Positions 1-21,284 of a stretch of DNA of 21,284 bases are shown one piece after another (position 1 is the first letter of the stretch; every line of letters starts with the position of its first letter). Source of the stretch: Amoebophrya sp. A120. Lineage: Eukaryota > Protista > Dinoflagellata. The translations under genes and the position numbers were made by a program. The stretch covers positions 1-21,284 of the forward strand of contig CAJINV010000033.1 of the NCBI GenBank assembly GCA_905178155.1, in the 5' to 3' direction. Below the pieces are notes generated by a model. That model was not told the origin of the DNA, did not search any database, and saw only the letters and a program-made list of their open reading frames with translations.

Positions 1-82
1 GTTGCGTTTGCACTTGCTTAGCATATAACTGTCACTACTAGTGCTTGTGCTACTACTTGCGCGATGCTATTTTTGAAATTGA

Positions 83-2167
83 TACAACAAGACCGGCAAC
101 GGTAAGGGAAAGGGTGCTGCTGCTAACAACAACAAGTCCAAGAAGGTGGAGACCTTGTTGCCCCCCGAGGAAGAGGATGATGAGGAGAACAACAAATCGT
201 CGAACAAGAAAAACCAGAACAAAAAGGGGAACAAGAACAACAATTCCAGTGCCGCTGCTTCTTCCAACGCGAATAAGAAGATGTGCAAGAAACAGGGGAA
301 GAAGAATAAAGAAGTAGATGCGGATCTGGACTTGGACTTGAACGACGACCCCATGGACGTGGATGAGGAAAATGCCGCTGGAGCTGGGGAGGACAAAAAC
401 GGGGAGTCGGGTACGAAAAAGAGGAAAACCTGCTCGGGCGACGCGGTGATTGCCTCCGAGGTTGCGGCCGAGGACGTAAGAATTTTTTTTTGCCTTGCCC
501 TCGCGCAAGAAGAAGAACTATTTCTGCGTGTCAGACTGCAAGTGCAAGTAGCTGCTGTATTCGGATTTTTTTTTGCATTTGTCGTTCATGCTCGACAAAA
601 ACACCGACCTAGACCCAAACGTTAACGTATACGTAAGCCAAGTCCCGAAGAAGCATAAAAATTTCAACAGGGGGCAAACGTGGCTGCGATGTCTAATTGC
701 ACTTCTGTGCTTTTGGAAATGGTGTCGAAAAACCAGTCTTTCGATCTGACGAAGTTTCTGGACAAGGAATATGCCCGCCTGGAGCTCTCCAAACTGGGAG
801 ATGAGCCAGACCAGACGGACGGTAACGACGAGGAGATCGATGGGGTGAAAAACAGCGACGGGGACGTGAACAACAAGAGTACCAGATTCGACTTTTCCAC
901 CGCGCCGAACTACAAAGAACTGATGGACCACCTCGAAGAGCAGGACCAGGAGATGCTTGCGACGCTCACGGGCATGAAGATGTACAAGTTTGCCGTCAAG
1001 CACCTGTGCGGAAACGGGCGGGCCCTCGCAACGGACTCGATGAAGAAGGCCAGCCAGGCCAAGGCGTACCAGCAACTGGTCGCGGGGAAATCGGCGAAGG
1101 AAAAATCCCTCGAGTACCTCAACCGTAAAGGAGCCAGCAGCCCGACGTGGTGCCAGGTAACAAAGCCGAACGATCCCGACGCGACGCACTACAAGCTGCG
1201 GCACCTCCTGGAACTGGACGTGCAGGCGTACGAGCTGTCCGAAGCGGAGATGACGGGAGAAACCACTTTTCCGATTTCCAAACTGCAATTTCCCTTGACC
1301 TATCCTGTGCAAAAATATCGTGCCCTTGCAAGTACTAACGTAGACCTAGAGATATAGATGCATCAGTGTCGTTTTCTGTTCTTGTGCCTTAGTCCTTGCT
1401 GTGATGCTGATAGTAGTGGATCTGGATGCGGATCTGCGTCCGGAACTGGATGCGCTCGTGGAAGTAGAACAGCAACAGCTACAGGGACTGCAAGCGCAAC
1501 TCGGTCTGGGCGTGGATGTGGATCTGGTAGTAGTTCTGATTCTGCTTCTGGATCAGGAATAGGAACGAGAAGCAGCGCGATACTTTTGCAATGCATATTA
1601 GGGACATCAAGATGGGCGGCGATTATCAGTACGTCTTTGCGCGGCACTACCCCTTCCCGAGCAAATACTTGGTCATGAGATGGAAGTGGGCAAAGAAATC
1701 CGGGGCGAGTGGAAACAAGGTCGCGGACGACAGCTTGCAAATTACGATGAAGAAATTTGTGATGGTATATTTTTGAGGTTTTCGTTTTTGGTTTTGAAAC
1801 ATGAAATTTGTGATGCGCATTTTCAACATGGACATCGACATCAGCAGCTGCGCCTGCAGCAGCAGGTGCAGCAGTAGCACCAGCAGCTACAAGCTCACGA
1901 CTGGTGTCAAGATAAGGTAGAAGTGCAAGGGCAAGAAAAATGATAAAGACACAAAAAAAAATCACTCAGCCTTCCACGGGATCGGGAGCCATGTTTTTCT
2001 ACGCCCCGATCCGACTCGAGTCGGACAAGACGTACTTGAAGACCCTTTCGAACGCCAAGGACACCTTGAACAGGGTCGAGAAGTCGGAGCAGCCGGGTGG
2101 TGGCGACAAGTCGGGTGGTGGCAGCGCGGACACGAATACCCACCTGGAGGACGACGAGGCGTTCTAA
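83..2167 (+). CDS. Multi-exon hypothetical protein, 5'-truncated by the window. Inferred exons ~83-475, 671-1311, 1596-1764 (or 1758), 1970-2167
   Basis: ORFs 146..625, 680..1357, 1591..1776 and 1940..2167 join in frame via phase-0 GT-AG introns 476-670 and 1765-1969 and a 284-nt TIR/DR intron. Codons are GC3-rich; the N-terminal part is K/N/D/E low-complexity; stop TAA at 2165-2167. No family recognised. Confidence 0.75.
476..670 (+). other. Canonical GT-AG intron, phase 0
   Basis: GAC|GTAAG ... TTCAACAG|GGG GCA AAC GTG; frames on both sides match; AT/T-rich interior. Confidence 0.8.
1308..1591 (+). other. Intron with 16-nt terminal inverted repeat and TGCA direct repeat (probably non-canonical)
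   Basis: TGCAAAAATATCGTGC (1308-1323) pairs with GCGCGATACTTTTGCA (1575-1590), 14/16. Removing 284 nt at the TGCA repeat gives ...YPVHIRDIKMGG. A GT-AG alternative (1307-1575) is also in frame. Confidence 0.65.
1765..1969 (+). other. Canonical GT-AG intron (donor 1765 or 1759)
   Basis: ATG|GTATAT ... CACTCAG|CCT TCC; phase 0, in frame with the last exon. Confidence 0.7.
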
Positions 2168-2621
2168 ACGCTAAGAGGAAAAAAGAAAATTGAACACTCA
2201 AGCTTCGGCTTCTTTGCGTGGTCGCACTTCTTCCGGTTGGAAATGAAGAAAAATCAAAATACTAGAAATTCATGTAAGATGTAAAATGAAAATGTAAATC
2301 TAAATGATAAAGATAATGGGTAAGAGTATGAAACTCAGATTTTGTTTTTTTACCCATAAATTATGCGAGTGCAAAAGAAAATGAAAAAGTAAAATTTAAA
2401 GTAGATGATGTTGAAGTTGATGATGTACATGTAGCAGTAGTTGTAGAAGAAACAGTAAATGTAAAAGCTAAAGCAAAACTAAAAGTAAATGCAAGTGAGA
2501 GTGTTTCTCTTTTGGTTTTACTCATAGTGATTGAAAACAAAAAGACAGAGATCAGGTGGCTAATCTAAATCCTGGCGCTGACGTTCATGCGCAGGCTGGT
2601 CTTGATGTAGAAGTAGATGAT

Positions 2622-2648
2622 CATCATCATCATCATCATCATCATCAT
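2622..2648. repeat. (CAT)9 microsatellite
   Basis: Nine perfect CAT units in low-complexity intergenic DNA. Confidence 0.95.
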
Positions 2649-2921
2649 GATCTTGCTGCTCAAGTTCATCTTCATCATTATGATATGGCTACGCCTTCTA
2701 CGAGTACGACTATCATGAGGGGTAAACCGCTACTGGTACTAATTCGGAAGATTCGGAATCGCAATCAATTTCAATTTCAAAATTTCAAATACAAACTCAA
2801 TACTAAAAAAATAATATGTTTATTACTATGAAAGTGAAGACGTAGATGAAGGGGAAAGCCAAAACTTTCAGGGTCACTATCAGACGAAAAAAATAGATTT
2901 TAGTTTTACTGAAAAAGAAAG

Positions 2922-4476
2922 CTCGAAAATGGAAATCCTAGTGAAAGCGAGCGCGAGCATCTTTACTAGTAGTGGTAATGTCATTGCCCATGCCTATCTC
3001 GATTCTATTCGTTGTTAAATTTAGAAAGTAATACACTCCATATCGAAACTGAGTATGGAAAGCAAATTTCAATCCAGTTCGGGAAAGAGTGCGTGTGTGG
3101 CTAGTATTGCTTTCGCGGTCCTGGTCGCGCACACACAATTCCAAAAACCAATCTGCCTACAACTAGAAATAAAAAAATCACCGACATGATAGTACAAGGT
3201 CAAGGACAGCACTACTCCATCTAGCATGAGCCAACTGCTACCCTCTTGGCCCTGGTCGCAGACCCCTGTACGCTGCATATGACTAGGCTCAAGAAGGAGG
3301 GCAGCGGCTAGAAAAGTCCCTTCGAAGCGAGCAAGAAAATCAAAGCCATCGTGTCCATCTATCCTTATCGTAAATAAAATTTTGTTTTTGTCGCTATCAG
3401 ATTCAGAAGTTCTAGTTCAAGTTTCAATCTCAGTAGTTTCAGGCACAGGCACACACAGCGTCACATATGCATAGAAATAGGCACAGGAATATCAGTATCA
3501 GTATGAAAATGAAAATGAATAGCAATAGGTATAGGTCTAAGCAGCATAAGTTTAAGTCAGCGCGGAATCAAAATCAAAAAACAAAAAGAAAACGTACAGG
3601 AAAAACAAAAATCAAAAATATGAATGAAATTATTACTATGTGCTGTTGCTAGCACATGCACAGCCACAAGCACCGCTAGTACCAGTAGCACGGCGCTACA
3701 AGTACAATTCGTAGGAGTAGGAAGTTAAAAACTGCACAGGAGACGATGACCAAATAACAGCAAGGCTAGAACGTGAACCATGGGACTGATGCAAACTTCT
3801 GAAACTAGAGCGGAATTCAAAGACGAAGACGAGCAAGTAGATTTTCAGTTTGATTTTCTATCAAGAACCAAGCCCGGCGTTAGGCGCAGGCTTTGGCTCA
3901 GGCTCGTGCTCAGCAAGAGCTAGAGCAAGCTGGAGGTGAAGCAGAAGCTCAAGCAGGGGCAGAACATGAAGTTGACGATGAGAATAAAGAATCATTTTTA
4001 GAGTTTGACGCGACTGTGAAAAACAAAAAAAACGACCCGAGGGGTGGCGCCTTCAAGCGAGCGTCATGCCCTGGTGAGTGCGGACTGAAAAAGGAAATGG
4101 CAGTCGCAGTGGCATTGATCCAGCAGCCAATGGAACTGGCTCCAGCTCCAAGTGTTCCCTCGTGTTGCAAAGCATCCCTATTCCCGATGCGACACTCAGC
4201 TGCTTGAAAAAGGTTTTGTACCCGCGGGGGCCAACAAAGATCAAAGGCTTCACTTCGTAGACTAGCTTCTGACTTCGAGATGGATTTTTTTGCCCTTTGT
4301 TTTTCTTGTTTTCGTTTTCCGATCATACTCTCGATTATGTCCCCGCGGCTAGAGTTACGCCTACGGCTAAGGTCAAACACCAAAAAGAAAAACACAAACG
4401 CAAGCTCCTCGAGTCAAGGCGTGCGCTTTTCAATTTCAAGCACAAGCTCGCGTCTACCTTTTCGCCCAAGAAATAA
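2922..4476 (+). pseudogene. Possible decayed multi-exon gene
   Basis: Higher-complexity blocks (~2922-3369, 3740-3878, 4035-4073, 4200-4476) alternate with intron-like blocks with GT..AG ends (3370-3739, 4074-4199). Candidate frames are interrupted by stops and the correct frame is ambiguous. Confidence 0.3.
4074..4199 (+). other. Intron-like segment, GT-AG with short TIR
   Basis: CTG|GTGAGTG ... CACTCAG|CTG: strong donor consensus, TGAGTG/CACTCA inverted repeat, CTG flanking direct repeat. Confidence 0.5.
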
Positions 4477-4821
4477 AAGATCAGCATCCGCACCACCACC
4501 ATCACCGCACCAACACCTACGCCATTAAATTTAAAATGCGAATGTAAGATCAAGATCAACAAGTAGCACGAGCACTAGAAGAAGAAGCAGACCTAAACTT
4601 TTTTGCTCATGCCTACACCTGCGTCTGCAACTGGATCTGGATCTGGAACTGCTACTGCAACTGCATCTGCAGCCCTAAGCTTTACTCATGCCTTTACCTT
4701 AGCGTAGCCTTACCCTCAGCCTAGCCCTAAGCTGTGGGCTGAGCCTGCAGCTGGACAAGCAGGAAGACAGAACTTTTTCTTTTTCATCAATTCCAAAAAA
4801 AATTAACTTAGTAGGAGGAAC

Positions 4822-6300
4822 AGCGGGCCCGGGCCCGGGTTCGGCCGGGCGCAACGAGATCCCCGCCTGGTGCCGGCCCTACTCCGCGCTGTCGAGCGGG
4901 GAGCAAAGCGCTGGCCCGCGTGACATGGGGCGGCTGCTGCGCAAGCTCCAGCGCCAAGGAGAGTTGGGCGAGAACTGGAAGAACGGGCCGGGCCTTGGCG
5001 CAGGTCTTCGAACAGCAGCAAGATGGGGCGCGGCGAATCCAAGACGAAAGTGTAGGAGCCGGAGGAATGTGCAGCCGATGGGCGAGATGAAGAAGAGGCC
5101 GCCCCACTTGGAGAAGCCTGACCTGCGGAAGAAGCCAACGGGGAAATGCGTCTGTGTGAAGGCCGTCGCCGCGCAATTTCTGCCCGCCGCGCCCGTGCGC
5201 GCCCCCCCGCTAGGCGCCGCGCGGGGCGCGCCCGGTTCGCGAGTCCGGGCCCACGCGGGCATGGGGCACTGGAGAACATTGCAGGCGCTGGTAGATGATC
5301 CGGAGTTTATCACAAGGTGGCCGATTTCGAAGGACCCCTGCCGCACGCGACGGCGCCCGCCTTTCCCTTCGAGTTCGATGGAGACAGCGCGGCGGCCGTC
5401 CACATGGTGAAGCCCCGGAAGCCCGTTATCCTGGGCAAGGTGCGCGCGCGCGGCCCCTTTTGCCGGTATCTGTCCGGGAAGTTGGCCGGCAATGGGCGCT
5501 TCTTTCGGCTGCGCATCGCCTCCCGCGCCCTTCCTTCGGGTCCTTCCCGTGGTCGCAACTGGCGGACGACAGCGCGTTGTTTGCGCTGCAGGCGTGGTTC
5601 GACAATGGCGCGGGCAAAAGTCGAAAGCGCGGAGCCTTTCACCGTGGAGGTGGTGAAGCACGGGCCGGCCGAGAATTAGCGGCCGAGAAGCTGTTCTGGC
5701 GGGCAGCGGCATTACCCTCAACAAGAATGGAACGGCGAAGGTGCACGTCGATGAGGGAAACTTGGGCCGAAGCGGAGCGACGGCATTGGGGGCCTGCCTC
5801 GTTTCGTCTTCTGGACCAGCCGCACGCCCGCGCCCTTCTCCAGATGCAGTGGTGGGAAAACCGGCTGGAGAAGGGGAAAAAGAACATCCGGCCCGGAGGC
5901 GGGGAAGGGGCTAGTGTGGCTACAACCGGACAAGTCGATCGTCGACCGGGACCACAAGAAACTGGCCCGCCCCGCCTTCTTTTTTTTCTGGCCACCCTGG
6001 CCCCCCCGGCGGCCGGGCCCGGGCCCCTCCGGCCGCCGTTTATTCTCTGGGCCCCACGAAAGCGGGGGGTGGCGCGGCGCCCCGTCCGTATCGTATACCT
6101 AGGCCTGCCCTGCGTCGCTCGGGCGCATTGGGCGGGCCGCTTTCGCTGCCGCGCAGGCGCCGGAAAAGCAGCAGCTATTCCGGTGCCATAGTTAGGGGGG
6201 CCACTGGCGCCGGCACTGGCACGCACAGCCACTGCTTTCCGCGCCCCCCTGCGCACGCTTCGCCGCGCGCTTCCTGTTCATGTACCTGTCGGGGGCGCCG
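4822..6300 (+). mobile_element. Degenerate LTR-retrotransposon-like integrase remnant (frameshifted)
   Basis: Abruptly GC-rich block with no intron-like filler. Collinear motif remnants in different frames: HAGMGHWRT (~5251), VADFEGPLP (5317), WFDNG (5595), HYPQQ-NGTA (5710), VWL...KKLARP (5914). They resemble the His pair, D, D and PQxNGxxE motifs and the C-terminal region of rve integrases. Boundaries approximate; no LTRs seen. Confidence 0.5.
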
Positions 6301-7071
6301 CTAGCTACAGGTGCAACGCACTGCATGCGGCAGCCCAGAAAGAAAACAGTAATCACTTCGTGGCGCCACACGCGACAGCACGGAAGCGCGTGGCAGCCCT
6401 TGCGGCCCTTGCTGCAAATATAATTTTCGCCACGCAGTTGCGTGGCAGGTGCCCTGTCGCAGGGCGTAGCAAACTTCAACTCCAACGATGGACTCCTCTC
6501 CATCGTGTCGCCCGCGGTTCCTTTCCTAAGGCCGGGCGCGCCGCAAAGTCGGACACGGACTCATGTTCGGGGGGGGGAGCTGGAGCTGGTGCTGGAGCAT
6601 CATCATTTACATTTTCATTGGGAGAGAGATGCAGGTAGGCTGTGTTGTCGTTTTTGCTTTTCGGCATCGAGTTCGAGTTTGAGATCGTGTTGCACTCGAT
6701 GGCGTTTTTTGTGAGCGCAGCAGAGAGGGCGAAGTTTACGAGTGGAGAGTTAAATGGCCATGCCGAGGTACTACGTTGTCAGCGAGCGAAACGCAATGTA
6801 TGAGACCATTCGTAAACTCTTGCTTCTGCGGTCTGGTGATTGTTGTAGTGTTGATCTAAAGTTAAAGTTTAAGTTTAGGGTGGTGGTAATACAGCAGCTT
6901 TTTTGTTCTTTAAACACGATGCCCTTTTGTGCGCTGACGCCTCGTTCTTCCGACCGACACAATCTTCGGTGAGTGCAACGCCCCGCTCACAATCTATTGC
7001 CGACGTGTTCTCTTCTACTTCTTCGCAAGAAGAAAAGATGACGGTGCTCCCTAGCCCTACTCCCACCAGGG

Positions 7072-7110
7072 GGACCGCGATAGCCACCTCCGCCGGACCG
7101 CGATAGCCAC
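7072..7110. repeat. 16-nt direct repeat with 23-nt period
   Basis: GGACCGCGATAGCCAC at 7072-7087 and 7095-7110. Confidence 0.95.
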
Positions 7111-7635
7111 TGACTACGGGTACGAGAAATGGAAGCGGGAGAAATTGGAAAATTTTTTTCGTAGAAGTAGTTCAACAGCAGAAATACATCCTCAAGGGGC
7201 CGCCAAGGGGATGAACAGCGAGGGGAGTAGTAGAAACAGCCACAAGAACACGACAGAAACAGATGTTGAGCCTAGTAGACCACATGATCAAGGAGCACGA
7301 CGAGCCGCCGGGCGAAGCAAGGCTGCACCTGTTTCACCATCTTCGATGCAGCAGGACCACGACAGTACGAGGGTGCTGAAGGAGCAGGAGCGACAAGAAA
7401 TGAATGACGAGGAGGCTGCAAATCAACGACGTCCCAAAAATGCGGAGGATGAACTTCTACTGCGAGAAAGAATAGAGTTGTCATCTTTAGAGGACGACAA
7501 CGCGCTGGGCCCGAGTGTTTTCCTGTACCCGGACTATTTGCAAAAACACATCGGGCCGTTATGGGTGGATGCGCTTACGGTTACGGCCGACGGGGTAGAA
7601 GATGCGGATCAGAACAGGAACCACTTCCTTATGGC

Positions 7636-7990
7636 GTTCTCAACTGTTACATTCTCTTTCTCAACTGTTACACGATTTCGATTTGTGATGCAAGAATGGG
7701 AAGAATGAAAGGGGCCCCCTTTGCGCGTCTTGCATGACAGATTTGGCACAGACTATAAGCCCGCGTGGCCCTTCCAGAATTTGTCATGCAGAACAGCTCG
7801 ATCGTGTTCGTCATCGTCTTCGTGTAGAAGTAGAAGTAGATCTAGATCTACATCTAGAACTAGATGACTGTGCAGCTGCAGTGGTGCTTTAACTTTTGGC
7901 TTTGCATGACAAATTGAAACTCATGTAACAGTTGAGCTTGAGAATGTAAATGTATATGTAACATTTACATTTGAGTTTGACTTTGAGAAT
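7636..7990 (+). other. Probable non-canonical intron with nested inverted repeats
   Basis: Ends GTTCTCAA / TTGAGAAT. CTCAACTGTTACA (7639-7651, 7660-7672) pairs with TGTAACAGTTGAG (7924-7936); AATTTGTCATGCA (7778-7790) pairs with TGCATGACAAATT (7903-7915). Removing 354 nt gives NHFLMAPTFLVPREQPVDF in frame. Confidence 0.6.
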
Positions 7991-10900
7991 CCCACATTCC
8001 TAGTTCCACGAGAGCAGCCAGTGGATTTCGCAGCAGGAGGCGATGATCTTCCGCGCAGTGGAAATAAACCATCAAATAAAGCGACTACTCCGTGCAAAAG
8101 TATCGCACACGCATGAAACCGACTGCGTACCATTTGCAAGACAGCGCGGTGCGGACCGACTACGACGGCCTATCCCTGGCGAGCGAGACTCTGGCCATGT
8201 CCTCAGCTGGCGGAGGGACGAGGAGGAGTGGTGCGTCTAGTAGTACATCTTCCCGTAGTTCCTCATCTTCTCCTGCGGCATCGTCCTCGGGGCCGCGTAC
8301 TAGCAGCCCGGTTCAAACTGCGACGAATTGGATAGCCGCCAAGACGCAGAAAGCTTTGGGTGATTTGGACCGCGCATTTTCGGAAAAGCATGGATTGGAC
8401 CATTCGCGGTTCAATTCATTCAAGGAGGAGAAAATGAAAACGTAAACGCCAGTAGAAGAACTGCGCGACGACAATGGCAACATGGAAGTAGGAACAGCAA
8501 CAAATGAAGAAAAAGAAGTAGAGATGAGATTAAAGCAGCATCCGTACAACCTGCACCTGCTGGAGCGCACGGGCCGTGGAACTACTGCGCATCATGATGC
8601 GAGTATTGGTGCAGGAGCGAATGGTCATGAGGGGCCAGCACGTAGCGAAAGCGAAGAAGCCTCGTTCTATCCACGACAGGAACAGTACCAGACCGCGCCA
8701 TCTCCTGAACAACAGCAAGAAGAAGTAGACTATCGGGCCCAGACTGAGGCGAGCAGCCGGCAGTTCGAGGGAATGCTGGGGTTTCGCGAGGGGCTGATGT
8801 CGGGTGCGGCGAAGGCGGTTGCGGTGGATGCGAGAAGAAAAGCGATGTATTTATACAAACAACGACGGCGCCGGGAGGTCCTCGGGTGACGGTGAGTACG
8901 GCGTCATAGGTTCTGACGCAGAAGGAGAAATAAAACGGGCTGCAGCGGAGGTGGATGAAGAATATCAAAAACGAAACGCCACCTCCTCGACCACGACCTC
9001 AAAAGCGCCAGCGCGGAAGGAGAATGGTAAGAACATGAACAATCTTAAAAACCACGGGGACAGCAAGAAGAAGAAAAGCGGCGTAGTTGTGCCACTCTCC
9101 GAGGCGGCCACCCAATTGCCCCGCGTGCTGCTACTGCAAGAAGTAGAAGAGCAAAGATCTGAGAATGTTGACAACGCTGAACCTGAAACACCACGAGCAG
9201 GGGGACCACCACCTGCTGCGACTACAGGGCCAAGTGACAAGCAAAAAACGAAAGAAAGTGTGCGTCCTGCGTGGAAGCAAGACCTGACCTACCGGTAGCG
9301 ATTTGAAATGGAAGAGCGCATGTTTGTGTCCGACTTTAGGATGAAGATGTCGAAAAACTATAACACAGCTTCGAATTGCTATTACATGTTTTGTTTTTGA
9401 AGTCAAAATGTACATGTACCGGAAAAGTTGAAACCACGAAGAAGGAGAAGCGAAGAAAAGAAAAAGGAAGACTACGATGTTCATTTAGAGGGAGACAGAA
9501 GAAGACGGGCGCTTTTTGTAAATTGAAAATTCCTCCGGGACCCTGTTACGGTGTGAAGTGAATGTGTATGAAAAGACCCTCGTGAAGTTGCCTTGTCCAA
9601 GATCTGGAAAACTAAGCGGCGTGTTTTTCTTTTTGAAGTGTCGACTACGCAGCTCCATAAATATGCAGCACGGAAGCATTTGTAGGTCTAAGTTTGTTTT
9701 TGAGACTCATTCCTCTGCTTCCGGACATCTCGTGATCTCAAAGCAGATAGAAGCTTTTTACGTTTCCTTTCGTTTGTCAGGGTGAGGCGAAGTGGTTTCG
9801 CTTCCCTAAGCGTCTTCGTCAAAAGGCGGACCTGCTAGTTGCAGCGCATGCGCAGATCAGGTTCATTCGCGCCATGTCTTCTCATCACTGTTTTGCGCGT
9901 GCAGTTGTAGATGTTGATGTAGTTGTTTTGGTTCTGGTGCATAGTGAAAGTACCCGCTTGCGTCTTCGTTTTGTCTTAGCCAGCGGCATGGATCAAGCCG
10001 CCTCCCCGGGCGGAATACAAATACGGCACGCGTGGTCGTGATAATCGTCTGTCGTTGCGAAATCGCTGTCGTGAATATCGTGCTCAGTCGTGTTGCCGCC
10101 ATCGTTCGAACAGGTCGTGGGTGCCGGATATGAAAATACACACGAAATGATCAATGAGAAACGCATTGATTTTTTTTCTGAAAATTTATCACTACAGTCT
10201 AGCCCTTCACGTTCATTTTTCACTAGAGTCATTTGCTGCGCACCAGGGCCACAAGCACAAGCAGGAGACAATCGAAGGTAGTCGTCCTCGAACGGGTCAT
10301 CGTGATCATCATCGTCGTCGTTTTCTCCTCGCTCTTGTGCCGCATGGTCCTGCCAGCTGAACTTCGCAGGCCGTATCCACGAATCGCAGGCAAAAGTCCA
10401 GACTTGTCTGGCGGGCTCTGTGGATTCGATGAGATCTTCTACGCTCCTTTAGGGCAGGGCTTAGCGTCGTGTGTAGATATGAAGGCTCCTGGTCTAGTCG
10501 TAGTCGTGCACGTTCTCACCACCAGTCGCGTCGCCGCCTCCCTGGGCGGGATAGAAGTGCAGGATGCCCTCGTGCGATCAGATCAAAATCAAGTAGGTCA
10601 GCGATCGCGATCGAAATGGTAGTGCTAATGCTAGAGCCTGGTTTCAGATATGTGCGTTTTCTGCGTCGTCGTGTGTAGTGCAAGTATAGTGAGAAGCTCC
10701 GGCTTTAAGGCGTTTTCCGTCTCGTAAGAGGCTCGTGGCATCGCATCAAGGTCGTCGAAATGTCGTTCAAACTCCGTGCGTTCGTTGCCGCTGACGGCAG
10801 AAAACGACGTCGGTTTTGCGCGGCGAGAAAATCGAAAAGAAAAAAAAATATTTGGAGATAAATATTTTTGGAACTACCGTAAGGTTGATGTATAGGAATA

Positions 10901-12528
10901 GCGTCCCCCCATACAAGAAAGTGACGGCCACGTCGAAGGCAACGCGTGTGGACAAGAAGGCGCGCGAACAATCTCAAGCTGGTGCTCACCAAGACGACCA
11001 ACCGCAAAGCTTCAGCACGCGTAGCCCGAAAGAATTAGAAGCCCAGCTGTATGGTTCAGAGGATTTGAAGGCGTCCCTCCGACGCGTTCTAGACGTGGAT
11101 AACGTCAACGTTAGCCCGTCTGAAATGGTGCCGAGCGTGAGCAATCGAATTCGCAACTTTGTCACTGCCGAAAACTTTGGTCAACAGCGAACGGATCCGG
11201 ATGGCCAGGGCTCACTTCCTGCTGGTGAACCGGGAGCAAATCACTAAAAGTGTTGTACTTTCACTGGTCCGCTTCTGTTCGTCTTTTACTCGCAGTTTTT
11301 TCTGCCATGTTTTCCACAAAATATTTCATCACTACAGAATTATATCACTAACTAAGCCTCCTATTATACACGCCGTGTTGAATGCTGTTTACATTTGCAA
11401 AAAACCCGCACCCGGAACAAAAGACGCGGACACTTCTAAGAGTAAGAAACTTTGAACTATATTTGATTTTTACGATGTCCTCGATTTGCTCAGCCTCCAT
11501 CCAGGCCCAGGCCGCCGCGACAGTTCGAGCGTCCACCTCCATGCTACCACGAGAGATACTAGAGCACTTTCAATCATATTGCCCGCCTTATCCAGGCGCG
11601 TGGTCGTGCCACAAGGGAAGTCATTCTCTTCTGTGGGTAAGACGACCAAGAACCTCCCAACCCGTGGAGGCATGACCTACTTAATATGAATCGTTCTCGC
11701 CTGCTACCCAAAGAAGTAAGTAAACCTTAAATCTTACCTGAGCCTTATCCAGGCTGCCGAGATAAAAAGTTGCAGCGCCAACAAGAACAATTTAGATGTA
11801 TTGTGCCGTGAGTCATCAATCAGGATTAGGAATAAACAAGGGACACACAATTCTTATGCGCAGCTCTAGTTTATTCCCAACACACCACGATGAAGATGAA
11901 TGAGTCACGATATAGTACATGAAATTTTGTTTTTGTTGTACCACGCAACTTCTGTGACACCAAATTTTTCCCGGGGAAGATGATCATGAGGATGAAAGTC
12001 CGTCGCTTTGTCGTTTGCTGTAACAAACGTAAAGTCTCCTGTATGTTGTTCTTGGAGGAAGATTTGCTTTTTGATGTTCGTGCGAAAAAAAACACAAATT
12101 TTTGTTGCAGAGGCATGTGGCCGCGGTAGTTTAGTGGCAAGATCCAGGTTTCGTTTCATATGTAAGACCATGAAGATGAATGGGCTTCCACCGATTTCCT
12201 TGATTAAAAGTTTTTACGGTAGGAGCAATGGCAGCCGATCCAAATGTGATCGTTGTGTGCCGTAATAAAGATCTGCTTTTTGATTGTGGTCGTGTGCATC
12301 ATGATAGTATCGTTTACGATCTTTCGTATGCCGCGTTTTGGCTTTCGAGATCGTGACGAGGATCATCACCTCGTTAAAAAAATTCCTGAACTTTAGCTTT
12401 CTCCTTGTGTGACATGAAGAACGGCGATAATTTGTTCCCCGCGTTTTTGCCGTCGACAGTCGCGTAAAGAAAAAGAAGAAATCGAATAAAAAGCAGTCTG
12501 CTAAGTTGTAGGCGTAGCAAAAATTATT

Positions 12529-15290
12529 ATGGCCCCACGACGACAAGTTCAACTTCAGATAGGGCGCGTCAAGCCCAAGATGATACCTTTGATAAAAAGG
12601 ACGCGGGTTGTTGGGTTTGGGGTAGCAGCATCTTCCTCGTCTGTGCCGTCGCTTCTGCTCCCGAGAAGACACAGTTCGAGTTACGTCGGTTTTTCCAGGT
12701 TGTGCAAGAAACCCTGTAAAAATATATCCAGCACCGCAAGGGGCGGCAAGAACTTTTCCGTCTTGCCTCCCGCAGGACGACTTGGGAAAGCACCCCGAGG
12801 GGGCCGGCTTCCCTGCCACTTCTCTACCACGGCACCAAGAAGTTCATTTTCTGTTGCGGCAGTGCAGCCGCATGTGCGCAGCTCCTGCTACAGTGTTCAT
12901 CTCCAACGAGCAGTACCACTACAACTACCTCCGTTTTTTACCGTCGGTTCTTTCCGCCAAAATTATGTTCTTCGTACGGGCGGAGCCGGAGGTGGAAGCA
13001 GTGCCGTCGGGCTCCGGAGCCTGACTTCGACGACCGCACAGCTGCTCCTAGATCACCAACAGCGACAACGAAGGCACTTCCGCGCCGAGGCCTCCGCCGC
13101 GGGGAAAAACGCCGCCTCCGTACGGGAGCGCACGCGACCCAGCGGCCAGAAAACCGACGTGCCCTCGGTGGTCGACGATCTGGTGGAGGACTTTCGGCGC
13201 AAGTTTTCCCCTTTGGGGCAGAACACGAGCAATGCGAAGCTGACCGACTTGTATCCGATTTTTGCGAAGGCGCGCACGCCGGACGACTATCACGTGTGCC
13301 TCCACGCCCTGAACATCGCCTACAACTTCGGATTGCTCCGCAACCCCATCGCAGACGTCGAGGACACTGAAGGAGCATCCGCAGGCAGAAAACCTGCCGA
13401 TAAAGCCAGCAGGGATAGAGGCGGGTCTCTTACCCTTTGCAAAAGTAGCGTCCCACCCGTACAGATTCTTGCAGTTTGGCGCGACAGATGTTCTTTCTAT
13501 ACCTGCATCTGCATGGCAAATGTGAGATTCAAATTTCACCTTTCCTTCTGATGAAATCTGAATTGCAAAAATTTATTTTACCTATTACGCAAGTTGTGCG
13601 GTAGTACTTCTGCAATGTGCATATCTTTCTCCAGCTCCACTTCAATTTCGACCTCAACCACGACCTCCGCGCCCAACACCGGGCGGCGGAGCGCCCACGC
13701 GTGCCACACGAAGGCCCTGGCCGCGTCGCGCACTCTGACTACGAGGCTGCTCGCGTTAGCCATGAACTGCCAGAAAATGAACGAAGCGGTGGACCTGGTG
13801 GCCAAGTATCGTGCGTTCCTACCGCAGCCCCCGCACGCGCAGTTGGTCTACGTGCTGCTGGGCTGCCTCCTGTACCGCAAGCAGTACCAGAAAGTCGCCC
13901 ACGTCGTCCAAGCCGTCCGCGAGGACTGGCTCCAGCAGCCGCGACCCAATTTTTACGTGCTCTGCATCGAAGCGCTGCTGCACCTGGACCCGAGCGGTAG
14001 ATCGGCCGTTCCAATCGTCCGCGACGCAGCGCGGTTCGACATCGATTTGCCGCTCAAGATTCGACTGTTGGTGGCCGAAGCAATGCTGGCGGACCGGAGC
14101 GAGGGCTTCGTTTTATCACCTCATCTGTTGCTTTGTCAACAGAATGATGGTCAAAAAGAACCTCGTCCACAAGAAGGCTCTGATTCTGCAAGTACAACCA
14201 CGGTAGAACAAGTTCTTGCCGCGGAGGAAGAAAATAATACGAGTACAGAAAATAAAGCTCCTGTGGCAACAAAAATAAATCCAGATGCTCGTCCCAGTAC
14301 GGCCGCCACGTCCACTGAGCAGCAAGAGCAGCGTGATGATCTTCAGCACACGAACAAGAGTCCCAGTTGCGAGAAAAGCATGGATAATCACTCATCAGTG
14401 ATTTTTGAGGCTGCGTTTCGCGGGCTGCTTCCAGAGCGCGAGTACGTGACTAGCGACGGAATCCGCAGAGCCATGTGCCTGTCCTGGCTGCGCCTCCTGC
14501 GGAACGACGACCCGGACTGGCATCTTCCCTTCCGACAGAGCTGGCGAAAGTATGCGAGTGCACAATTGTTGCCCGTTGTTCCTGTCAAGATTCATCTGGC
14601 ATGATCTGGTAACCAAAGCGTGCGCACGACGAATCTTTTACACATATTGCTGTCTGGGGCCGACGTCTCGATACGAGAACGTGTCATGCATGATGTTGAT
14701 AAAATTCAAACTCAAAGGCAATTATAGAGAGTGAAATTTGCGTTTTGCATGAGAAATGACAACGACGCGGAATCCTTGTGCACTCGCATAGCAACCGTCG
14801 CCTTCGCAACTGGGCCGTACAGACGCGTATCAACTGGAAATACGTCTCGGTCAGTACCACTTTTGGGAAGACTGCAGAACTTTGTCATGCACCTTACATC
14901 CAGACAGTTTCTGTTTCTGATGTAAGCGAAAACATCCGCACCTTCACATGTTGGGCTTAGGCTTCTCAGTGTGCTGGCCCATCTTCCATGGCATGTTCCA
15001 CGACCATTCCGTGCACTGATGCAAATAAATTTGCAATTTTGGCATTTTTACTACGTGTGCAAAAGAACTATTTACACATAGAGATTCTATCTTGCGTCAC
15101 GCAGATTCATGTGCAGAGTCAGAAGGTTGCAGTTTCGATCCAGCTGACCCAGTAGACGTACTATTTGCATCGCATAATGCGGCTGCCGGCCGCCTTTTTC
15201 CGTGTTGTGCCGGCTGAATTTCGGCGAGAGTGCGTAGCGCGTCTGGGCATGCACGTTTGTCCGGAGGTGGAAGAAACGGATCCCGTGTGA
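12529..15290 (+). CDS. Multi-exon protein, putatively mitochondrion-targeted and alpha-helical (possibly PPR-like). Inferred exons 12529(or 12580)-13458, ~13582-14567, 14619-14680, 14764-14849, 15156-15290
   Basis: ORFs 12529..13551 and 13594..14604 share a frame. The long N-terminus is R/S/L/G-rich and nearly free of acidic residues. The amphipathic helical core reads LTTRLLALAMNCQKMNEAVDLVAKY...PNFYVLCIEALL. Downstream exons join in frame to ...RECVARLGMHVCPEVEETDPV* (TGA 15288-15290). The function call is weak. Confidence 0.75.
13459..13581 (+). other. Intron with imperfect TIR (GT...AC; GT-AG alternative ends at 13593)
   Basis: ATTCTTGCAGTT near the 5' end pairs with AATTGCAAAAAT (13561-13572); 123 nt keeps the frame and removes the stop at 13549-13551. 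Confidence 0.6.
14568..14618 (+). other. 51-nt GT-AG intron with short TIR
   Basis: GTTGCC ... GGTAAC CAAAG; removes the in-frame TGA 14602-14604 and keeps the frame. Confidence 0.6.
14681..14763 (+). other. Non-canonical intron (GT...AC) with AACG direct repeat and TGTCAT/ATGACA TIR
   Basis: Splicing at the repeat gives SGADVSIRERRGILVHSHSNRRLRNW. No slipped register ends in AG, and the nearest upstream AG is followed by an in-frame TGA (14757). Confidence 0.65.
14850..15155 (+). other. GT-AG intron with short TIR
   Basis: TCG|GTCAGT ... GCTGACCCAGTAG|ACG TAC; phase 0; GGTCAG/CTGACC inverted repeat. Confidence 0.65.
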
Positions 15291-16068
15291 AAAGAACGAA
15301 ACATATTTATCATTTTCCAGTCATCACATTCAAGAGGTGCCCGTGACGCATAATTCACTTTCGGCTCTACTTCGCGACCTGCTTTACACTAGGATCAGAG
15401 GGGGCACTGGTGGCGCGCACCACAGAACTGTTGCCGCACCCAAAAATCGCGTTCCTGCTTTGTTTTTCGACGCTGCCACCATGTGTTGGCAGAAAAGAGA
15501 TGAAGATCAAGAAACTACTCTCACAGCGTTACTAAATGTGTGTGGCTGGTGCGAGATGGTACGATTAGCTGCTAATCATGTTCTTCTGCCTGCTGTGTGG
15601 TCTTCTGTTTTAAGCGTCACCTTGGTCCCATTTATCGTTAGAAGAAAAATGAATTGCTTTTCTTCTTTCTGTAAATCGGCAAAAAGATGAAAGAACTATC
15701 ATCCGAGTTCATGAAAAAGCCCAGCACAAGAACTTTTGTTTTCGTTTTGCGTCTATTTTCATTCTCCCTCTCACCTTAAGAAGCGCACACGCAATTCATT
15801 TTCATTCTCATCATGGAGCGAGAAATCAATGCTTGTAAGATCCGTATGGATACTAAAGTAGAACATTTTTGTGTGTGGTCGGAGGCTTGGGGGGTGGCGC
15901 TATGTCAAGTAGCTGTGCAGTAGCAGTACAGCACTCCGGGGGGGCGTCCGGTCTTCGGGAAGGTTTGCTGCCTAAACTAGTATTGCTATGGGAAAATTAT
16001 AAACCCTAGTAGAATGAAATAACGGGTTGACCTCCACGAAGATAAAAAAGGGATCACTCCGAAGATTT

Positions 16069-19000
16069 ATGCAGCTTCAACTTCCCTGTAGAAGTTCTCG
16101 TTGGCCAAAAAGTTCCATGTGCTGCCCCTTGTCCACAGGTTTTTTCGTTTTTGTCTTCTTTCTCACTGCCGGCGTCGAGCAAGCCGCTGGGGAGGAGGCA
16201 AGAGCATCGGCCAAGGCTTGCGTTGACACGACCTGGGCGGAGTGGTCGGCGTGCAGCAAGACGTGCGGCGCCGAGAAGGGCACGCGGCGGCGGACCAGTA
16301 ACTGCGGGACCGAGCAGAGCGAGAGGTGCGCCGCGGACTTGAGGACTTGCCCCGCGCCGGCCAACGTGGACTGCGTCCAGCAGCAGGGGAGCTGGGGAGA
16401 GTGCAGTGCCACGTGCGGGTCGGGGCTGCAGGTCCGGGTGAATCTGGTCACGCAGCAGCCGGAGGGGACGGGCACGCCGTGCGGCCCGCGGTCGGAAACC
16501 AAGCCCTGCAATACCCAAGAGTGCCCCCTGCTGGACTGCAAGGTGGGAGCGTGGTCCGACTGGACTCCTATCAATTGCAAAAATGTCTGGCTCTGGAAGA
16601 ATGCAACTTGTGCTGCTGCATTTCAATTCCAAGAAAATAAAAATCTGTATTGCATGAGCAGCAAAAGGAGGCTAATTCTTGCTACGCGGAAAGGACATTT
16701 GTCATGCGGAATAAGCATCAAGTTCAAGCAGCCCTCAAAAGATCTGTGATGCTAGGGCCTGCATCACAGACATCATGGGTCGTACAAAACGTGAATGAAA
16801 AGTCGCAGAATGTTCCAGACTCAGACATATTTGCATTTGATAACGCCCACGTGTCGGCTAAAGTGCACCACCCCGCAGCCCCTCTACCAGCGGATTGGGA
16901 ACACGTGGCAGTCCAGCGGAACCGTCGTTTCCGACTGGGGTTTTAAGATGCGGATGCGGAGAATAACCCACCCACAAAGGCTACGCGAGTGTCAGGTTTG
17001 AAATCGACACATGTTGGCGCAACTACAGGGGCTGCTGATCCACCTTATGGTATGCTCTCTAGCTGCCCAACACACTCTACTTGCTTCCAATTGGGCTTAA
17101 GTACATCATACGCCTCTACAGAGATTTTCATTTTGTGCAGTGCATTTTCTGCCATCACAACAATATTCGTCGCTTTCAAACCTGACGGCTGCATGAAAGC
17201 CGGGCGGCCAGCCTTGTCCGCGTTTGGTGGAGAAGACTGCCTGCGACTATGCGTTGCAAATATGTCTGGTTTGGATTTGTGATGCAAATTTTGAAGGACA
17301 ACAAGATCTGTGATGCGTGAGTACAAGTGGCGGTTGTTCGTGTCACGCTGGATGAAGCCAGTTTGTGGTGCGAAATACGGTAGAAGTCGCAATGAGATGT
17401 GAGAAGCTTTTGATGCGTTCGCGCCATGCAAGAGGCCGTTTTGTCATGCATTGATCACCCGGCATGTTGACAATCACAACTTCGCGTGCTTTTATCCAGA
17501 CTCCGACATAAAGTTTGTAATGGATAGCGACGGGAACGGCGCTGAGAGGTATTTTGCGGAGAAGCGAAATGCTTGGAGCGACGCAGACATCGAGAAGCTG
17601 CGTCGGTTTAATACGTATTCGGAGAGGCAGACGGATCAGCACAAGCTGGTGGAAGTGGACCGCTTTCCCACGGGAGATAACGGCCACGAATTGCCTGCCC
17701 CCTGCCCGCGGGTAGACCCTCCGCCGGTGGACTGTGTGCAAAACCCGATGACGCAGACAGGAGGGGGACCCGTTTACAAGTTGTGTGACGTAGGACTGCA
17801 CAATGGGGTCGACTACACCGATGTGGGAGGGGGAACCGATATTTTCTACCAAAATACAATATTCTTCCCCCTCCCCATATTCAAAACGAAGTTTCTCATA
17901 CTGGATGTGCGTTCACAAATAAGCTCTGTGTTGAGGTAACGGATTACGGCTAGACTCTAAGGCTGGACGAGGGGGGCGTTCAAGTCTAGTCGTTCTGCAC
18001 GGCAAGCGACTGCCCTGTAGGGCCGGCTCATGACAAATCGCTACCACAATGGAGCTGAAGCAGCTGCAGGCTGCCTTCTTGCAAGACAAATAGCTCCTGA
18101 CTGGTGTAGTTGTACACAATCAGCATCTTCACAAGCGTTCTTTTTGATTATGGGTGGGGGACTACTTCTTCACACAATATTTTTCCTGACGGAGCTAGAG
18201 CGGGGTATTGGAACGACTTTAACTGTGCAGCCGATTGTGAAGACAATCTCGAGTGTTGGCACTACTCGCAGTTGCATTGCATGGATGGAAACTGCGAATT
18301 GAAGCGCAACACCGGCGCGTGGCATAATCCCGCTCCCTGGTATTGCAAGCGCTCAGGCTTCACGAACAGCGGTGATTGTCACCAGCCAGCGTGGTGTGCG
18401 AGCCCGTGCGGGCCATTTTGCGAAGTCTATCAGTGGGCCGAAATTACAACCTTTCCCGCCAACGGCGGGCGGGTGTGCGGCACGCTGTGGCAAGTGTCGC
18501 CGGGTCCAGACGCATTGGGCTACCAGGGCCAAAAAAAACGGTGTCCGCCGGAAATTCCGTGCCGCCAGGAGGATAATAACGACTGGAGTACGTGCAGCGC
18601 GTCCTGCGGCCTAGAGGGGAAGCAGTACCTGAAGCGGCGAGTGATCACGCATCCGCAGTGGCTGACAACTGAAGCGAATCGCTGCCGGGACATACAAAAA
18701 GCGCGGTCCTGCACTCCGCCGCCTCCCCCGTGTCCGGTCGATTGCGAGATGGAGCCGTGGGGCGATTGGGGCGACTGTGACGTCTCCTGCGGCCCGGACG
18801 GCCGCCAGACGCGGACCCGCAAAGTTCGGGTGGACATGAAGGCAAATGGCTACCCCTGTCCGCCCGCGGATCAAAACACGCAGACCATCAGCTGCCAGAA
18901 CCCGCCACATTGCCCCGTCGATTGCGTGCTAGGGGATTGGACGCCGTGGAGTGACTGCTCGGCGACGTGCGGGCCGGCTCACCGGTACCGTGCCCGGGCC

Positions 19001-21284
19001 GTGGCGGTGGAAGCAGCCCACGGGGGGAACGCGTGCCCCAAAAAGGGCGACCACAAGTATCACCAAAGTCGGTTCTGCCACGAGAATCCGGTGTGTGACG
19101 AAGATTGCAAACTCTCCGATTGGACGCCCTGGTCGTCTTGCTCGGTGATACCCTGTTGCAAACTGCTAGCGCACTAGCATATTTGTCATGCTGTAGTACA
19201 GTAGGGATAACATGATAAATTAAAGTATGATATACAATGCGTATTTTATTTTACCATAAGTATATCCTCGCGGTAAGTTGTATGTAGTGAGGTCACGAAC
19301 GTTCTAATCTAGCGATCTTTTTGACATGTCTTATCCAAAACGACCGGCAGTTTTCAAGTGGCCGGAGGTGTTTCTGAGCATAAAAGATTTCCATTGATCA
19401 AGCGGCCGGGGCTTTGTTGTCAAAAAAGCCCGAGCCAATTCTATCGATTCGCGCTTGATAAAACGACGCAGCGGAGCCGGCAAAAGGGGCACCCTTCTGA
19501 GGCGCCCGCCGCATCTGTTTCCGTCGATTTGGGGCGCCCAAAAAGGGACGCCCAAAAAGCAGCACTCCGAAAAAAACAGCGAATCCGCATAGTATGGGCC
19601 TCATTTTGGCCCACATTCGGGCCTCGCAAAAGACGCCACCAAAATCCGCCATTTCAGAGGCGGACTGAAGGCCAGAAGATGCGGCATTTTGCCAAAAAAA
19701 GAACAAAAAAACCAAGTCCGCCAAAAGCAAAAAGCCAACTCGCATGCTATGGGCCCGATTTGGGGCTCCCAAGGGTCCGTCCCTGGCGCGGGCCCTGGCG
19801 GGGCCATAGCATGCGGGGAAGGTTTTTCGATTCGAAACCAAATGGAGGCCAGCTCTGGAGTGAGATTTTTAGCGACCGCCGTGCCGTCGTGCATAGCATT
19901 ACCCGCGATGGCATGGTGGGCAGAGAAGTTGCGTCTTTTTTGGCGTGAAGACAAAAAGACCGCCATGACCTCACTACCTCCGCGGACGCGGCTATTATTG
20001 GTAGATGGTGCACGTGCACCGGCTTGGAGTACTTTTTTGGATCGGTCTGCGGATGACGTAGGGTTTTATGTGTGCCTCCGGGGAACCTACCTCTTTGTCT
20101 CGGAGGGACACCAGATCCGCATTAGGTGTACGTAAAAGTTGTAGATTGGCGTTTATCTTCCCAGCATGACAATAAATATCGTTCGCTAGGAGTTTTCCGT
20201 ATGATAGGTGACCTGTGGCGACGGGGGCACGCAACGTCGCGAGCGGAAGGTACTGTCCGCGGGACCTGCCGCACAAGGAACGGCTTGCGGCCCCCTGCAC
20301 GAAGTGCGGCAGTGTCCGAGAAAGGAACCCTGCCCGATCACGTGTGCGCAATACGAGTGCCACACGCACAACTTCTCCGGGCCCCGCTACATCAGTGCCG
20401 TGACGGACCAGGCCACGGGTGATGCTGCGAACGTACTGAAGTATCGCAGGGAAAAAAGCTGGCAAAGCATATGCGTAAAAAACCAAAATGAAAATCTCTG
20501 TTGCGTATGCTGAGTAGCATGTTATGGGCTCGCCCTTTTCAAACATGTCTGCGTAGTCATTCTTACAGGATACAAGCATGCGATGCTAGCTTTTTTCTGT
20601 GTGATATGAAGCCCGCGACGAGGATAGGGACGTACCTGTACACGCTTGCAACCACGTATCGCATGAAAAAACGCTTATGAAAAAGTTGAACATGCGACGC
20701 AGAGCCCGCATGATCCAACAGGAGTGCAAGTACTAACTGTTTGAGATGCAGCATTCTTGCTACGAAAAATGTTGCACGTACAGATCGATGGTCAGTTATG
20801 TTTCAGCCGTTGCAGGGATGCGTAAGTGATTTTCTGTGGTATGTAGGAATCAAATAACGTTGTATCGTGAAAGGAGATTGAGATCATGTTTCGGAAGTTG
20901 CACCACTAATAAGGTCGTCGCAGTGAAGTAAACTTTTTGAAACGATACGTCGGATCCGTGTGACGCTTCCGTGGATGTGACGGACCCGCAGAGCTGTGAG
21001 CAAGTCTGCTGTGCTGCGACGTACTGCGTCAACGACGACGAGTGGCCCCGCTATCCCTGGACGGAGTTTGACCACATCAAAACGGTCTATTACATTGAAA
21101 AATGCCCCCCACTCCTGAAATTGCAAAAATTTGTGATGCGAAGTTTCCAAATGAAAACTTTTTATCATGCCGGCACGGGATGGCTGTCGTCGCGACCGTC
21201 TCACCTACGATCTACGCCTTCTCCTGCTGCACAAGTTCGATCCGGAAAGGGTTTAGGTTAGGTTTCAGGGTTTAGGATATCCAC
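16069..21284 (+). CDS. Secreted or surface protein with about 7 thrombospondin type-1 (TSP1, spondin-like) repeats and Cys-rich spacers; multi-exon, probably 3'-truncated by the window
   Basis: Hydrophobic signal-peptide-like segment (STGFFVFVFFLTAG). Repeated VDC...WxxWxxCSxTCG...RxR...GxPCP motifs in ORFs 16027..16749, 18110..19177 and 20208..20513. The splice 19144|20208 reconstitutes WSSCSVTCG. Start could be ATG 16069 or 16117. Confidence 0.88.
16570..16842 (+). other. Intron with ~30-nt TIR (probably non-canonical)
   Basis: TATCAATTGCAAAAATGTCTGGCTCTGGAA (16569-16598) pairs with TTCCAGACTCAGACATATTTGCATTTGATA (16813-16842), 26/30; 273 nt keeps the frame. Confidence 0.7.
16991..17199 (+). 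other. Intron containing an 18-nt near-terminal inverted repeat
   Basis: GTCAGGTTTGAAATCGAC (16991-17008) pairs with GTCGCTTTCAAACCTGAC (17169-17186), 17/18. The TSP1 frame resumes at PGGQPCPRLVEKTAC (17200); GT-AG 16996-17199 is in frame. Confidence 0.65.
17253..17449 (+). other. Intron flanked by ATGC[G/A]TTG direct repeat
   Basis: Removing 197 nt joins ACDYAL to ITRHVDNHNFACF. The 5' end TTGCAAATATGTCTGG resembles the TIR of the 16570 intron. A GT-AG alternative (to 17434) exists. Confidence 0.6.
19145..20207 (+). other. 1063-nt canonical GT-AG intron with GGTGA direct repeat
   Basis: TCG|GTGATA ... GATAG|GTG ACC TGT GGC; restores the CSVTCG motif. Confidence 0.85.
19284..19977. mobile_element. 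MITE-like insertion inside the long intron
   Basis: Perfect 12-nt inverted repeat GTAGTGAGGTCA (19284-19295) / TGACCTCACTAC (19966-19977). Interior is GC-richer than the flanks with A/T runs and a 12-bp internal IR (19741-19752 / 19804-19815). No target-site duplication seen. Confidence 0.5.
20441..20610 (+). other. Intron with 24-nt TIR and TGAAG direct repeat
   Basis: GTATCGCAGGGAAAAAAGCTGGCA (20441-20464) pairs with TGCTAGCTTTTTTCTGTGTGATAT (20584-20607): 19 Watson-Crick pairs, 4 G-U, 1 mismatch. 170-nt removal is in frame. Confidence 0.7.
20656..20948 (+). other. Non-canonical intron (GT...AC) with ACGT direct repeat and ACGTATCG/CGATACGT TIR
   Basis: 293-nt removal gives TYLYTLATTSDPCDASVDV in frame. 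Confidence 0.7.
21248..21276 (+). repeat. Degenerate telomere-like (TTTAGGG) repeats
   Basis: AGGGTTTAGGTTAGGTTTCAGGGTTTAGG, about four imperfect units, followed by non-repeat ATATCCAC. Confidence 0.6.

Follow-up and report, generated by a model that had tools for sequence, protein, structure and literature searches.

Results

Introners interrupt two host genes in the window

The window analyzed here is a 21,284-nt stretch of DNA from Amoebophrya sp. A120 (contig CAJINV010000033.1, positions 1 to 21,284 of the forward strand), and one of its exons has an 80% match to a protein of Amoebophrya sp. A120. Its genes are interrupted by short inverted-repeat elements, within which recurs the motif that is our subject, the 11-mer AT[TC]TGT[CG]ATGC. 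Introns were called from skips in contigs of two sequencing runs, X1 and X2, whose classification as RNA is a guess; these contigs have 15 joints, five of which, with short sides of 21–35 nt between repeat ends, were set aside as repeat chimeras. Ten stretches are skipped between 12 and 21 kb, and their removal yields two open frames:

12529..15286, + strand: host gene, open once three RNA-supported introns are removed
16066..21087, + strand: host gene for a thrombospondin type 1 repeat protein (Pfam TSP_1 and TSP1_spondin), open once seven RNA-supported introns are removed

The longest exon of the first gene has no Pfam match. All ten RNA-supported introns consist of one inverted-repeat element plus exactly 5 nt; one is bounded by GT..AG, and the others are non-canonical. 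Left ends, chosen by eye, are TAT or TAC in all ten, and right ends, computed by starting at this TAT or TAC and counting the intron length minus 5, are TAT in nine and CAT in one. The 5-bp duplication at these introns is exact in three cases, agrees at four of five bases in five, and at three of five in two. Across 13430–20950, divergence of the duplications and a variable position of the cut with respect to the hairpin leave the removed length unchanged at the element plus 5 nt, a rule that constrains models of non-canonical splicing.

The introner passages of Farhat et al. 2021 (PMC7789003) describe the introners of A120 as non-canonical introns of ~240 nt belonging to many families, with inverted repeats that start with TAT and an A run and with direct repeats of 3–5 nt. 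The window elements fit that description, including its TAT...AAA ends: they have TAT inverted repeats with a downstream A run, a direct repeat at the boundary, non-canonical removal, and repetition in the genome. Such elements are already published, and the internal site reported here is an added property of this class of intron-forming transposons. Introners and motif copies of the window are listed below, where a strict site is a match to the refined consensus RYYT[GC]T[ACG][AT]TGC; the 11-mer is the commonest form of this consensus, which occurs two to six times per element, in both orientations.

1806..1816, + strand: motif copy, 40 nt inside the TAT at 1766, in the inferred GT-AG intron 1765–1969
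7630..7996, + strand: F5 introner with exact duplication TTCCT; four exact sites at 7681 (+), 7732 (−), 7779 (+), and 7904 (−)
13431..13623, + strand: F1-type introner, RNA-supported intron 13430–13627; two one-mismatch sites, no strict site
14551..14790, + strand: F7-type introner, intron 14548–14792; site at 14747 (−)
14828..15176, + strand: introner, intron 14825–15178; one-mismatch site at 14880 (+)
16569..16842, + strand: introner of family A/F0, intron 16567–16845; sites at 16606 (+), 16643 (+), 16697 (+), 16742 (+), and 16761 (−)
16982..17195, + strand: F8-type introner, intron 16980–17198; still spliced, with no match to the refined consensus at one mismatch or fewer
17248..17526, + strand: F11/F0-type introner, intron 17243–17526; exact sites at 17275 (+) and 17306 (+), 31 bp apart; near-match at 17439 (+)
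17847..18179, + strand: F4 introner, intron 17839–18176; sites at 18028 (−) and 18081 (−)
19149..20206, + strand: introner with exact duplication GGTGA, GT..AG intron starting at 19144; sites at 19181 (+) and 20164 (−), both 32 nt from the nearer element end; contains a nested repeat of ~0.7 kb
20442..20606, + strand: F12 introner, intron 20437–20606; site at 20494 (+)
20657..20947, + strand: introner, intron 20655–20950; no strict site
21088..21177, + strand: start of an F10 introner (hidden Markov model [HMM] E value 1.5e-17); exact site at 21129 (+); loose ends at 21169

The first 10 kb of the window has no RNA support, runs X3 and X4 giving no gene coverage in 1–10000, and the raw RNA runs X7, X8, and X9 placed only 4, 3, and 0 reads on the window. 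Within this region, the element at 7630–7996, whose right end was taken by reading the printed flank sequence, matches its family HMM at E = 2e-39 and is sequenced at depths of 2867 and 1438 against ~45 in run X5 (~60-fold). Its excision together with 5 nt joins HFL to VPREQPV, as in the A120 protein P0001. Some of its sites fall within extended inverted repeats (7647–7693 with 7902–7949). The region around 1806 has no family HMM match and a DNA depth near single copy, and 31 of 37 nt there match a stretch of an element in sampled locus L068. Given this resemblance, and a distance from the preceding TAT (40 nt) like that of first sites in other elements, the copy is probably the remnant of a decayed element end.

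The motif is overrepresented in the window

An initial annotation of the window, made from its letters, had proposed that the 11-mer is a cis-signal shared by otherwise unrelated introns. A pattern search recovered all 11 of its exact matches at the positions and strands it gave (9 on the + and 2 on the − strand; shuffled sequence held 0.07 on average and 1 at most), and at up to one mismatch the window contains 19 matches against 1.42 expected. Its near-matches at 1755, 14880, 16761, 17439, and 18028 have one mismatch, whereas that at 20164 has two, and the one at 1755 falls in an inferred exon. The claim that every exact copy is intronic held for the five (16697, 16742, 17275, 17306, and 19181) inside introns that the RNA-like contigs skip; the other six lie in introns or elements that are inferred only. 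Four of these are in element 7630–7996, where there is no RNA coverage, one (21129) is within the element that begins at 21088, for which no splicing was seen, and the copy at 1806 is in a GT-AG intron, 1765–1969, deduced from the reading frame only. Ten of the 11 copies thus belong to five inverted-repeat elements, 1806 being the eleventh. The host introns proved not to be unrelated, being TAT...ATA elements that duplicate 5 bp of their target. Within the motif, runs X1 and X2 contain divergent sibling copies: one letter is changed at 21136, and the site in a loose end behind 16720 is degraded.

An independent sample from a close relative

Since the pattern had been picked from the window itself, we examined the motif in separate sequence. 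As bait we used a pattern for the ends of element 16569 that does not include the motif, which retrieved at least 146 loci from one assembly (14 of 64 parts scanned). One of these loci, L011, encodes a protein with 90% identity to its match in A120 and 37% to that in A25, which identifies the assembly as a close relative of A120. Removal of eight overlapping loci and trimming of four, one of which then fell below 200 bp, left 137 loci, and the 67 of at least 2 kb (624,161 bp) were analyzed. This sample is enriched in the bait family, and ~30 kb of it is still duplicated as homologous segments.

The 67 loci contain 418 exact copies of the 11-mer, and their most enriched 8-mer is TGTCATGC, with 788 occurrences against 49 expected. 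The motif is real, and stronger than the window alone indicated. An element finder relying on inverted ends and duplication alone returned 378 elements, compared with 14 and 5 in two shuffles; 367 of these are at most 500 nt long and form 39 clusters. The element-end patterns found no match in the prokaryote genomes searched, and two matches in viral contigs fell in coding sequence and were taken as chance.

Sites are confined to introners and shared across families

Elements defined by ends and duplication alone cover 88,168 bp, or 14% of bases, and hold 315 of the 418 exact copies; with family HMMs added, whose matches can be aided by the motif itself, 410 of 418 copies fall in 127,801 of the 624,161 bp (20%). 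The ~496 kb outside element families, which pools exons, other introns, and intergenic DNA, contains eight exact copies against 2–4 expected. The bait family cannot account for this confinement, because the 233 non-bait elements carry 192 exact copies and 25 of the 39 clusters have at least one. With the refined consensus, a strict site is found in 358 of the 367 elements and 33 of the 39 cluster representatives. The end-most site is mostly 25–50 nt from the element end, and further sites occur throughout the interior.

The site is common to families whose inverted-repeat sequences differ. When sites and 32 nt at each end were masked in the consensuses of the 12 families with at least three members, no match between families was obtained by BLAST at E < 0.01. 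In this respect the initial annotation was borne out, as a cis-element is common to introns whose interiors do not align.

Sites are conserved and spaced at three helical turns

Element 16569 has 99 full-length relatives in the related assembly, and the consensus of this family (family A) has six sites. Among these copies and the window copy, which share 71% mean identity, the six sites have a mean conservation of 0.89 and the spacers 0.72, and identical positions are degenerate at each site. Sites exceed spacers in conservation at p < 0.05 in 11 of the 12 families, a comparison somewhat favored by our defining sites on the consensus.

Sites in the same orientation are separated by 31–33 bp in 36 of 87 pairs, whereas random placement gives 5.5 (maximum 14 in 2000 trials). 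Such a pair occurs in 11 of 12 families (2.6 expected) even as the spacers between them are dissimilar, and opposed pairs peak at 17–19 and 13–14 bp. A distance of 31–33 bp corresponds to three turns of B-DNA, and we infer that the spacing reflects protein phasing. Common ancestry of the spacing is possible; selection would still be needed for it to outlast the spacers.

Sites show no consistent preference for the sense strand

Gene strand was assigned in 63 of the 67 loci by a self-trained codon model. These calls are backed by Pfam matches in 28 of 227 called-strand open reading frames (ORFs), the called strand being the one scanned, and by restoration of the reading frame, which was achieved by excision at +5 in 211 of 370 cases versus 29–48 at other offsets. 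Exact copies in the 67 loci number 213 sense and 197 antisense (p = 0.46). The nine sense copies among 11 in the window are correct as a count, but they stem from only six elements and are therefore non-independent, and the larger sample does not bear them out as a bias. Inserts of family F0 are divided 52 to 56 by orientation, and a comparison that stratifies by family and site finds sense and antisense sites equally intact (odds ratio 1.005, p = 0.98). Among 284 frame-interrupting elements, 43 have strict sites in antisense only, 49 in sense only, and 8 have none. Moreover, four of the spliced introns in the window lack a strict site, and in one of these (16980–17198) nothing comes within one mismatch of it.

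The motif is therefore not a general splicing signal, as neither the sense bias, the stronger conservation in sense orientation, nor the enrichment across introns expected of an intronic splicing-factor site, such as one of the UGCAUG type, was found. The initial annotation had pointed to TGCATG on the reverse strand of the C variant followed by A; this remark is unsupported, as the base needed for it is present in 343 of 788 C-variant cores, with no strand preference. A likeness of the motif to the Sm-binding site was likewise considered and rejected, given the absence of strand preference and the acceptance of C in the U run.

The elements have the features of mobile, non-coding transposons

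The elements have the features of miniature inverted-repeat transposable elements: terminal inverted repeats (TIRs), a target duplication of fixed length, short length, lack of coding capacity, and empty sites. An exact 5-bp duplication flanks 143 of the 189 elements matching the family A model, and 297 exact duplications yield no target consensus. Four empty sites were found in homologous segments with flank identities of 85%–100%, all without the element and with a single copy of the duplicated 5 bp:

L021:4932-5081, filled/empty pair with 5-bp duplication
L021:17276-17558, filled/empty pair with 5-bp duplication
L009:6529-6790, filled/empty pair with 5-bp duplication
L009:11706-11967, filled/empty pair with 5-bp duplication

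The flanks of the L021 pairs are 97%–100% identical, pointing to recent gain or loss. That the motif might be an integration seed, another suggestion of the initial annotation, is contradicted by its location within the element and by the absence of a consensus among target duplications.

A tree of family A places 77 core-site changes on terminal and 12 on internal branches, compared with 963 and 494 for spacers. Per column, internal-branch changes are about ninefold rarer in the core (0.40 versus 3.74). An excess of core changes on terminal branches is expected if copies with intact sites multiply, although it is not unique to that process. At eight shared insertions, where differences are few in total, 0 of 141 core and 5 of 1155 spacer positions differ.

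Other features of the window

One further element of the window has no site:

1301..1597, + strand: element whose ends are of the high-copy F1 type and whose interior is of low complexity; intron status deduced from the reading frame only

Its interior has been replaced by low-complexity DNA with a six-base period, and similar tracts occur at 2280–2690, 4620–4740, and 7820–7970. A protein search with the neighboring ORF 689–1297 found nothing. At 8086–8105, where the frame departs from that of A120 protein P0001, lies an isolated F1-like element end; this is possibly a footprint or remnant, and that gene copy may be broken or differently spliced. Over short ORFs at 10342–11984, runs X1 and X2 give an unspliced contig of high depth (50–81).

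The ~0.7-kb repeat nested in introner 19149 (19278–19997) has high depth, loose ends at 19281, and a 79% relative in L075. Short inverted repeats close to both ends and a 3′-terminal GC hairpin are features that make it Helentron/HINE-like. Finally, the repeat at 21169–21284, which follows other flanks elsewhere as judged by loose ends, truncates introner 21088 and ends in TTTAGG-type telomere-like units.

Discussion

We observed directly how the elements are built, that transcripts lose the element together with 5 nt, and that the sites are confined to the elements, conserved, preferentially spaced, and neutral with respect to strand. From this we think it probable that the sites are binding sites on double-stranded DNA for a shared transposase that mobilizes non-coding introners in trans. 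A transposase common to many introner families would bind the internal sites of these elements, and bound protomers, which would occupy the same face of the helix because 31–33 bp is three turns of B-DNA, may help to join the two ends. Copies with intact sites would leave more descendants, with sites decaying after insertion, and splicing would rely on the terminal hairpin rather than on the internal sites. Of the three options in the initial annotation, a subterminal transposase site comes closest, with the amendment that sites run through the whole element. Our guess, prompted by the duplication of 5 bp and by family 38 as published (described below), is that the protein is an integrase-like DDE (Asp-Asp-Glu) enzyme.

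Several observations weigh against this proposal. A transposase or integrase domain was absent from the 227 locus ORFs scanned, which were drawn from 454 ORFs of at least 170 codons after exclusion of 226 as antisense or poorly scoring (one selected ORF went unscanned), a filter that could drop a foreign gene. Likewise, no long element with an ORF that could serve as an autonomous partner was found in 0.67 Mb of a genome of ~115 Mb, and the relevant passages of Farhat et al. (PMC7789003) report no transposase in A120 and dispute a general mobilization by transposase. The end-most site faces inward at only 42 of 74 family ends, with sites filling the interior, and F4 sites are no more conserved than F4 spacers (p = 0.16). 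Strand neutrality is imperfect, in that refined sites in frame-interrupting elements number 491 sense and 425 antisense (p = 0.03) and one of the 12 families, F1, is skewed in orientation (36 versus 20, p = 0.04). Empty sites could also result from precise intron loss, and the contrast between terminal and internal branches also arises from any purifying selection or from homoplasy in spacers. A cruder count at shared insertions, with non-orthologous alignments mixed in, gave 0 of 171 core and 44 of 1293 spacer differences, a direction that suggests constraint after insertion. Last, a host DNA-binding protein would predict identical patterns.

That last alternative, in which a host or domesticated protein binds the site on DNA, either as an accessory to transposition or as a chromatin factor that marks the element for removal from nascent RNA, would account equally for strand neutrality, phasing, and conservation, since occurrence in both orientations is what a double-stranded DNA site implies. 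It would also accommodate the lack of a transposase both here and, by the account of Farhat et al. (PMC7789003), in A120, the failure to detect U1 small nuclear RNA (snRNA) in that study, and the presence of one site in families with differing inverted repeats. A marking role sits poorly, however, with the window introns that are spliced without a strict site, and especially with 16980–17198, and site number does not differ significantly between frame-interrupting and other elements (3.2 versus 3.0, p = 0.14). A role in splicing also implies constraint after insertion, yet core changes accumulate on terminal branches. We consider a host factor unlikely, albeit deserving of attention. Action on RNA, whether as a splicing-factor site or through pairing of plus with minus copies to fold the interior of the intron, is highly improbable in our judgment. 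Both orientations are present, the fold predicted for the family A consensus allows them to pair, one count has a weak sense excess, and one of seven tested column pairs has excess matching (49 versus 35). Covariation between plus and minus sites is nevertheless at background, as 10% of 1287 arbitrary pairs of variable columns do at least as well as this one and the other six have no excess; stratified tests give no sense bias, and pairing needs no fixed same-orientation spacing of 31–33 nt. Family F6, moreover, has two plus and no minus sites and interrupts frames in both orientations (6 versus 2), and outside elements the motif is near background.

The sites might instead be neutral relics, pieces of an ancestral repeat duplicated internally and carried along without function. 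Every carrier belongs to one structural class of element, elements 16569 and 17248 share homology beyond the motif (z = 7.2 after masking), and the extended inverted repeats of element 7630–7996 include some of its sites. A relic would not be expected to keep its sites conserved while the intervening spacers fail to align across families, nor to be degenerate at the same positions at every site, and the ninefold deficit of core changes on internal branches stands against it as well. The conservation contrast has already largely refuted this explanation, to which we give little credence.

A shared transposase site, our preferred interpretation, has partial parallels. In the A120 material of Gozashti et al. 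2025 (PMC12130899), family 38 is annotated as "5-bp TSD, TA/TA Termini" (TSD, target-site duplication) with integrase-like homology, and many A120 families share lengths with the elements here. Most A120 families are labeled "TIR DNA, Unknown." Integrase-like cut-and-paste transposons of the Ginger type have long TIRs that, according to the sections consulted (PMC2836005), end in TGTNR; most make target-specific 4-bp duplications, and TDD-4 and TDD-5 make 5-bp duplications. The elements here differ from Ginger at their termini, which are TAT, and have no target consensus. In piggyBac and piggyBat, and in Tol2, Tag1, and Ac as cited in the same portion of that source (PMC11707139), short repeated motifs within the ends are bound by transposase and thought to aid synapsis. 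Like those arrays, the putative sites here comprise several conserved copies in both orientations inside the element ends; unlike them, they fill elements of 110–350 bp, span families with different terminal repeats, and are spaced at three turns. Multi-site ends combined with a 5-bp duplication have a parallel in Tn7 and phage Mu.

We found no description of the internal site in the literature searched, passages of PMC11453091 and PMC11282704 included, as far as its text extends; figures, two supplement files, and the authors' alignments could still contain one. In its text, PMC7789003 treats terminal repeats and no internal common site, and the motif strings do not occur in its supplement text, a statement that does not extend to figures such as the S25 logos. 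The passages of PMC12130899 in question include no internal site, and "subterminal" occurs in them 0 times. A search with the motif strings gave no relevant paper among the matches listed.

Farhat et al. (PMC7789003), in their account of these introns, regard the families as largely unrelated and leave unresolved how tens of thousands of non-canonical introns spread. A phased site common to families suggests one trans-acting protein serving all of them, and it could serve as bait in DNA pull-down and as a signature by which to find autonomous elements. If it is merely a transposase site, it would add a new detail to a published system and no new kind of biology. On the broadest reading, which we regard as a long shot, hundreds to thousands of introner families that seem unrelated would be served by a single DNA-binding protein, whose 11-bp site recurs in a three-turn helical register. 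Taken furthest, this protein would be a domesticated, transposase-derived factor that mobilizes the elements and also marks them on DNA for precise, orientation-independent excision from the transcript, in a lineage in which no U1 snRNA has been found. Mobility through internal sites, paired with splicing through the terminal hairpin, where element plus 5 nt is removed, would narrow the search for the mechanism by which these introns are spliced.

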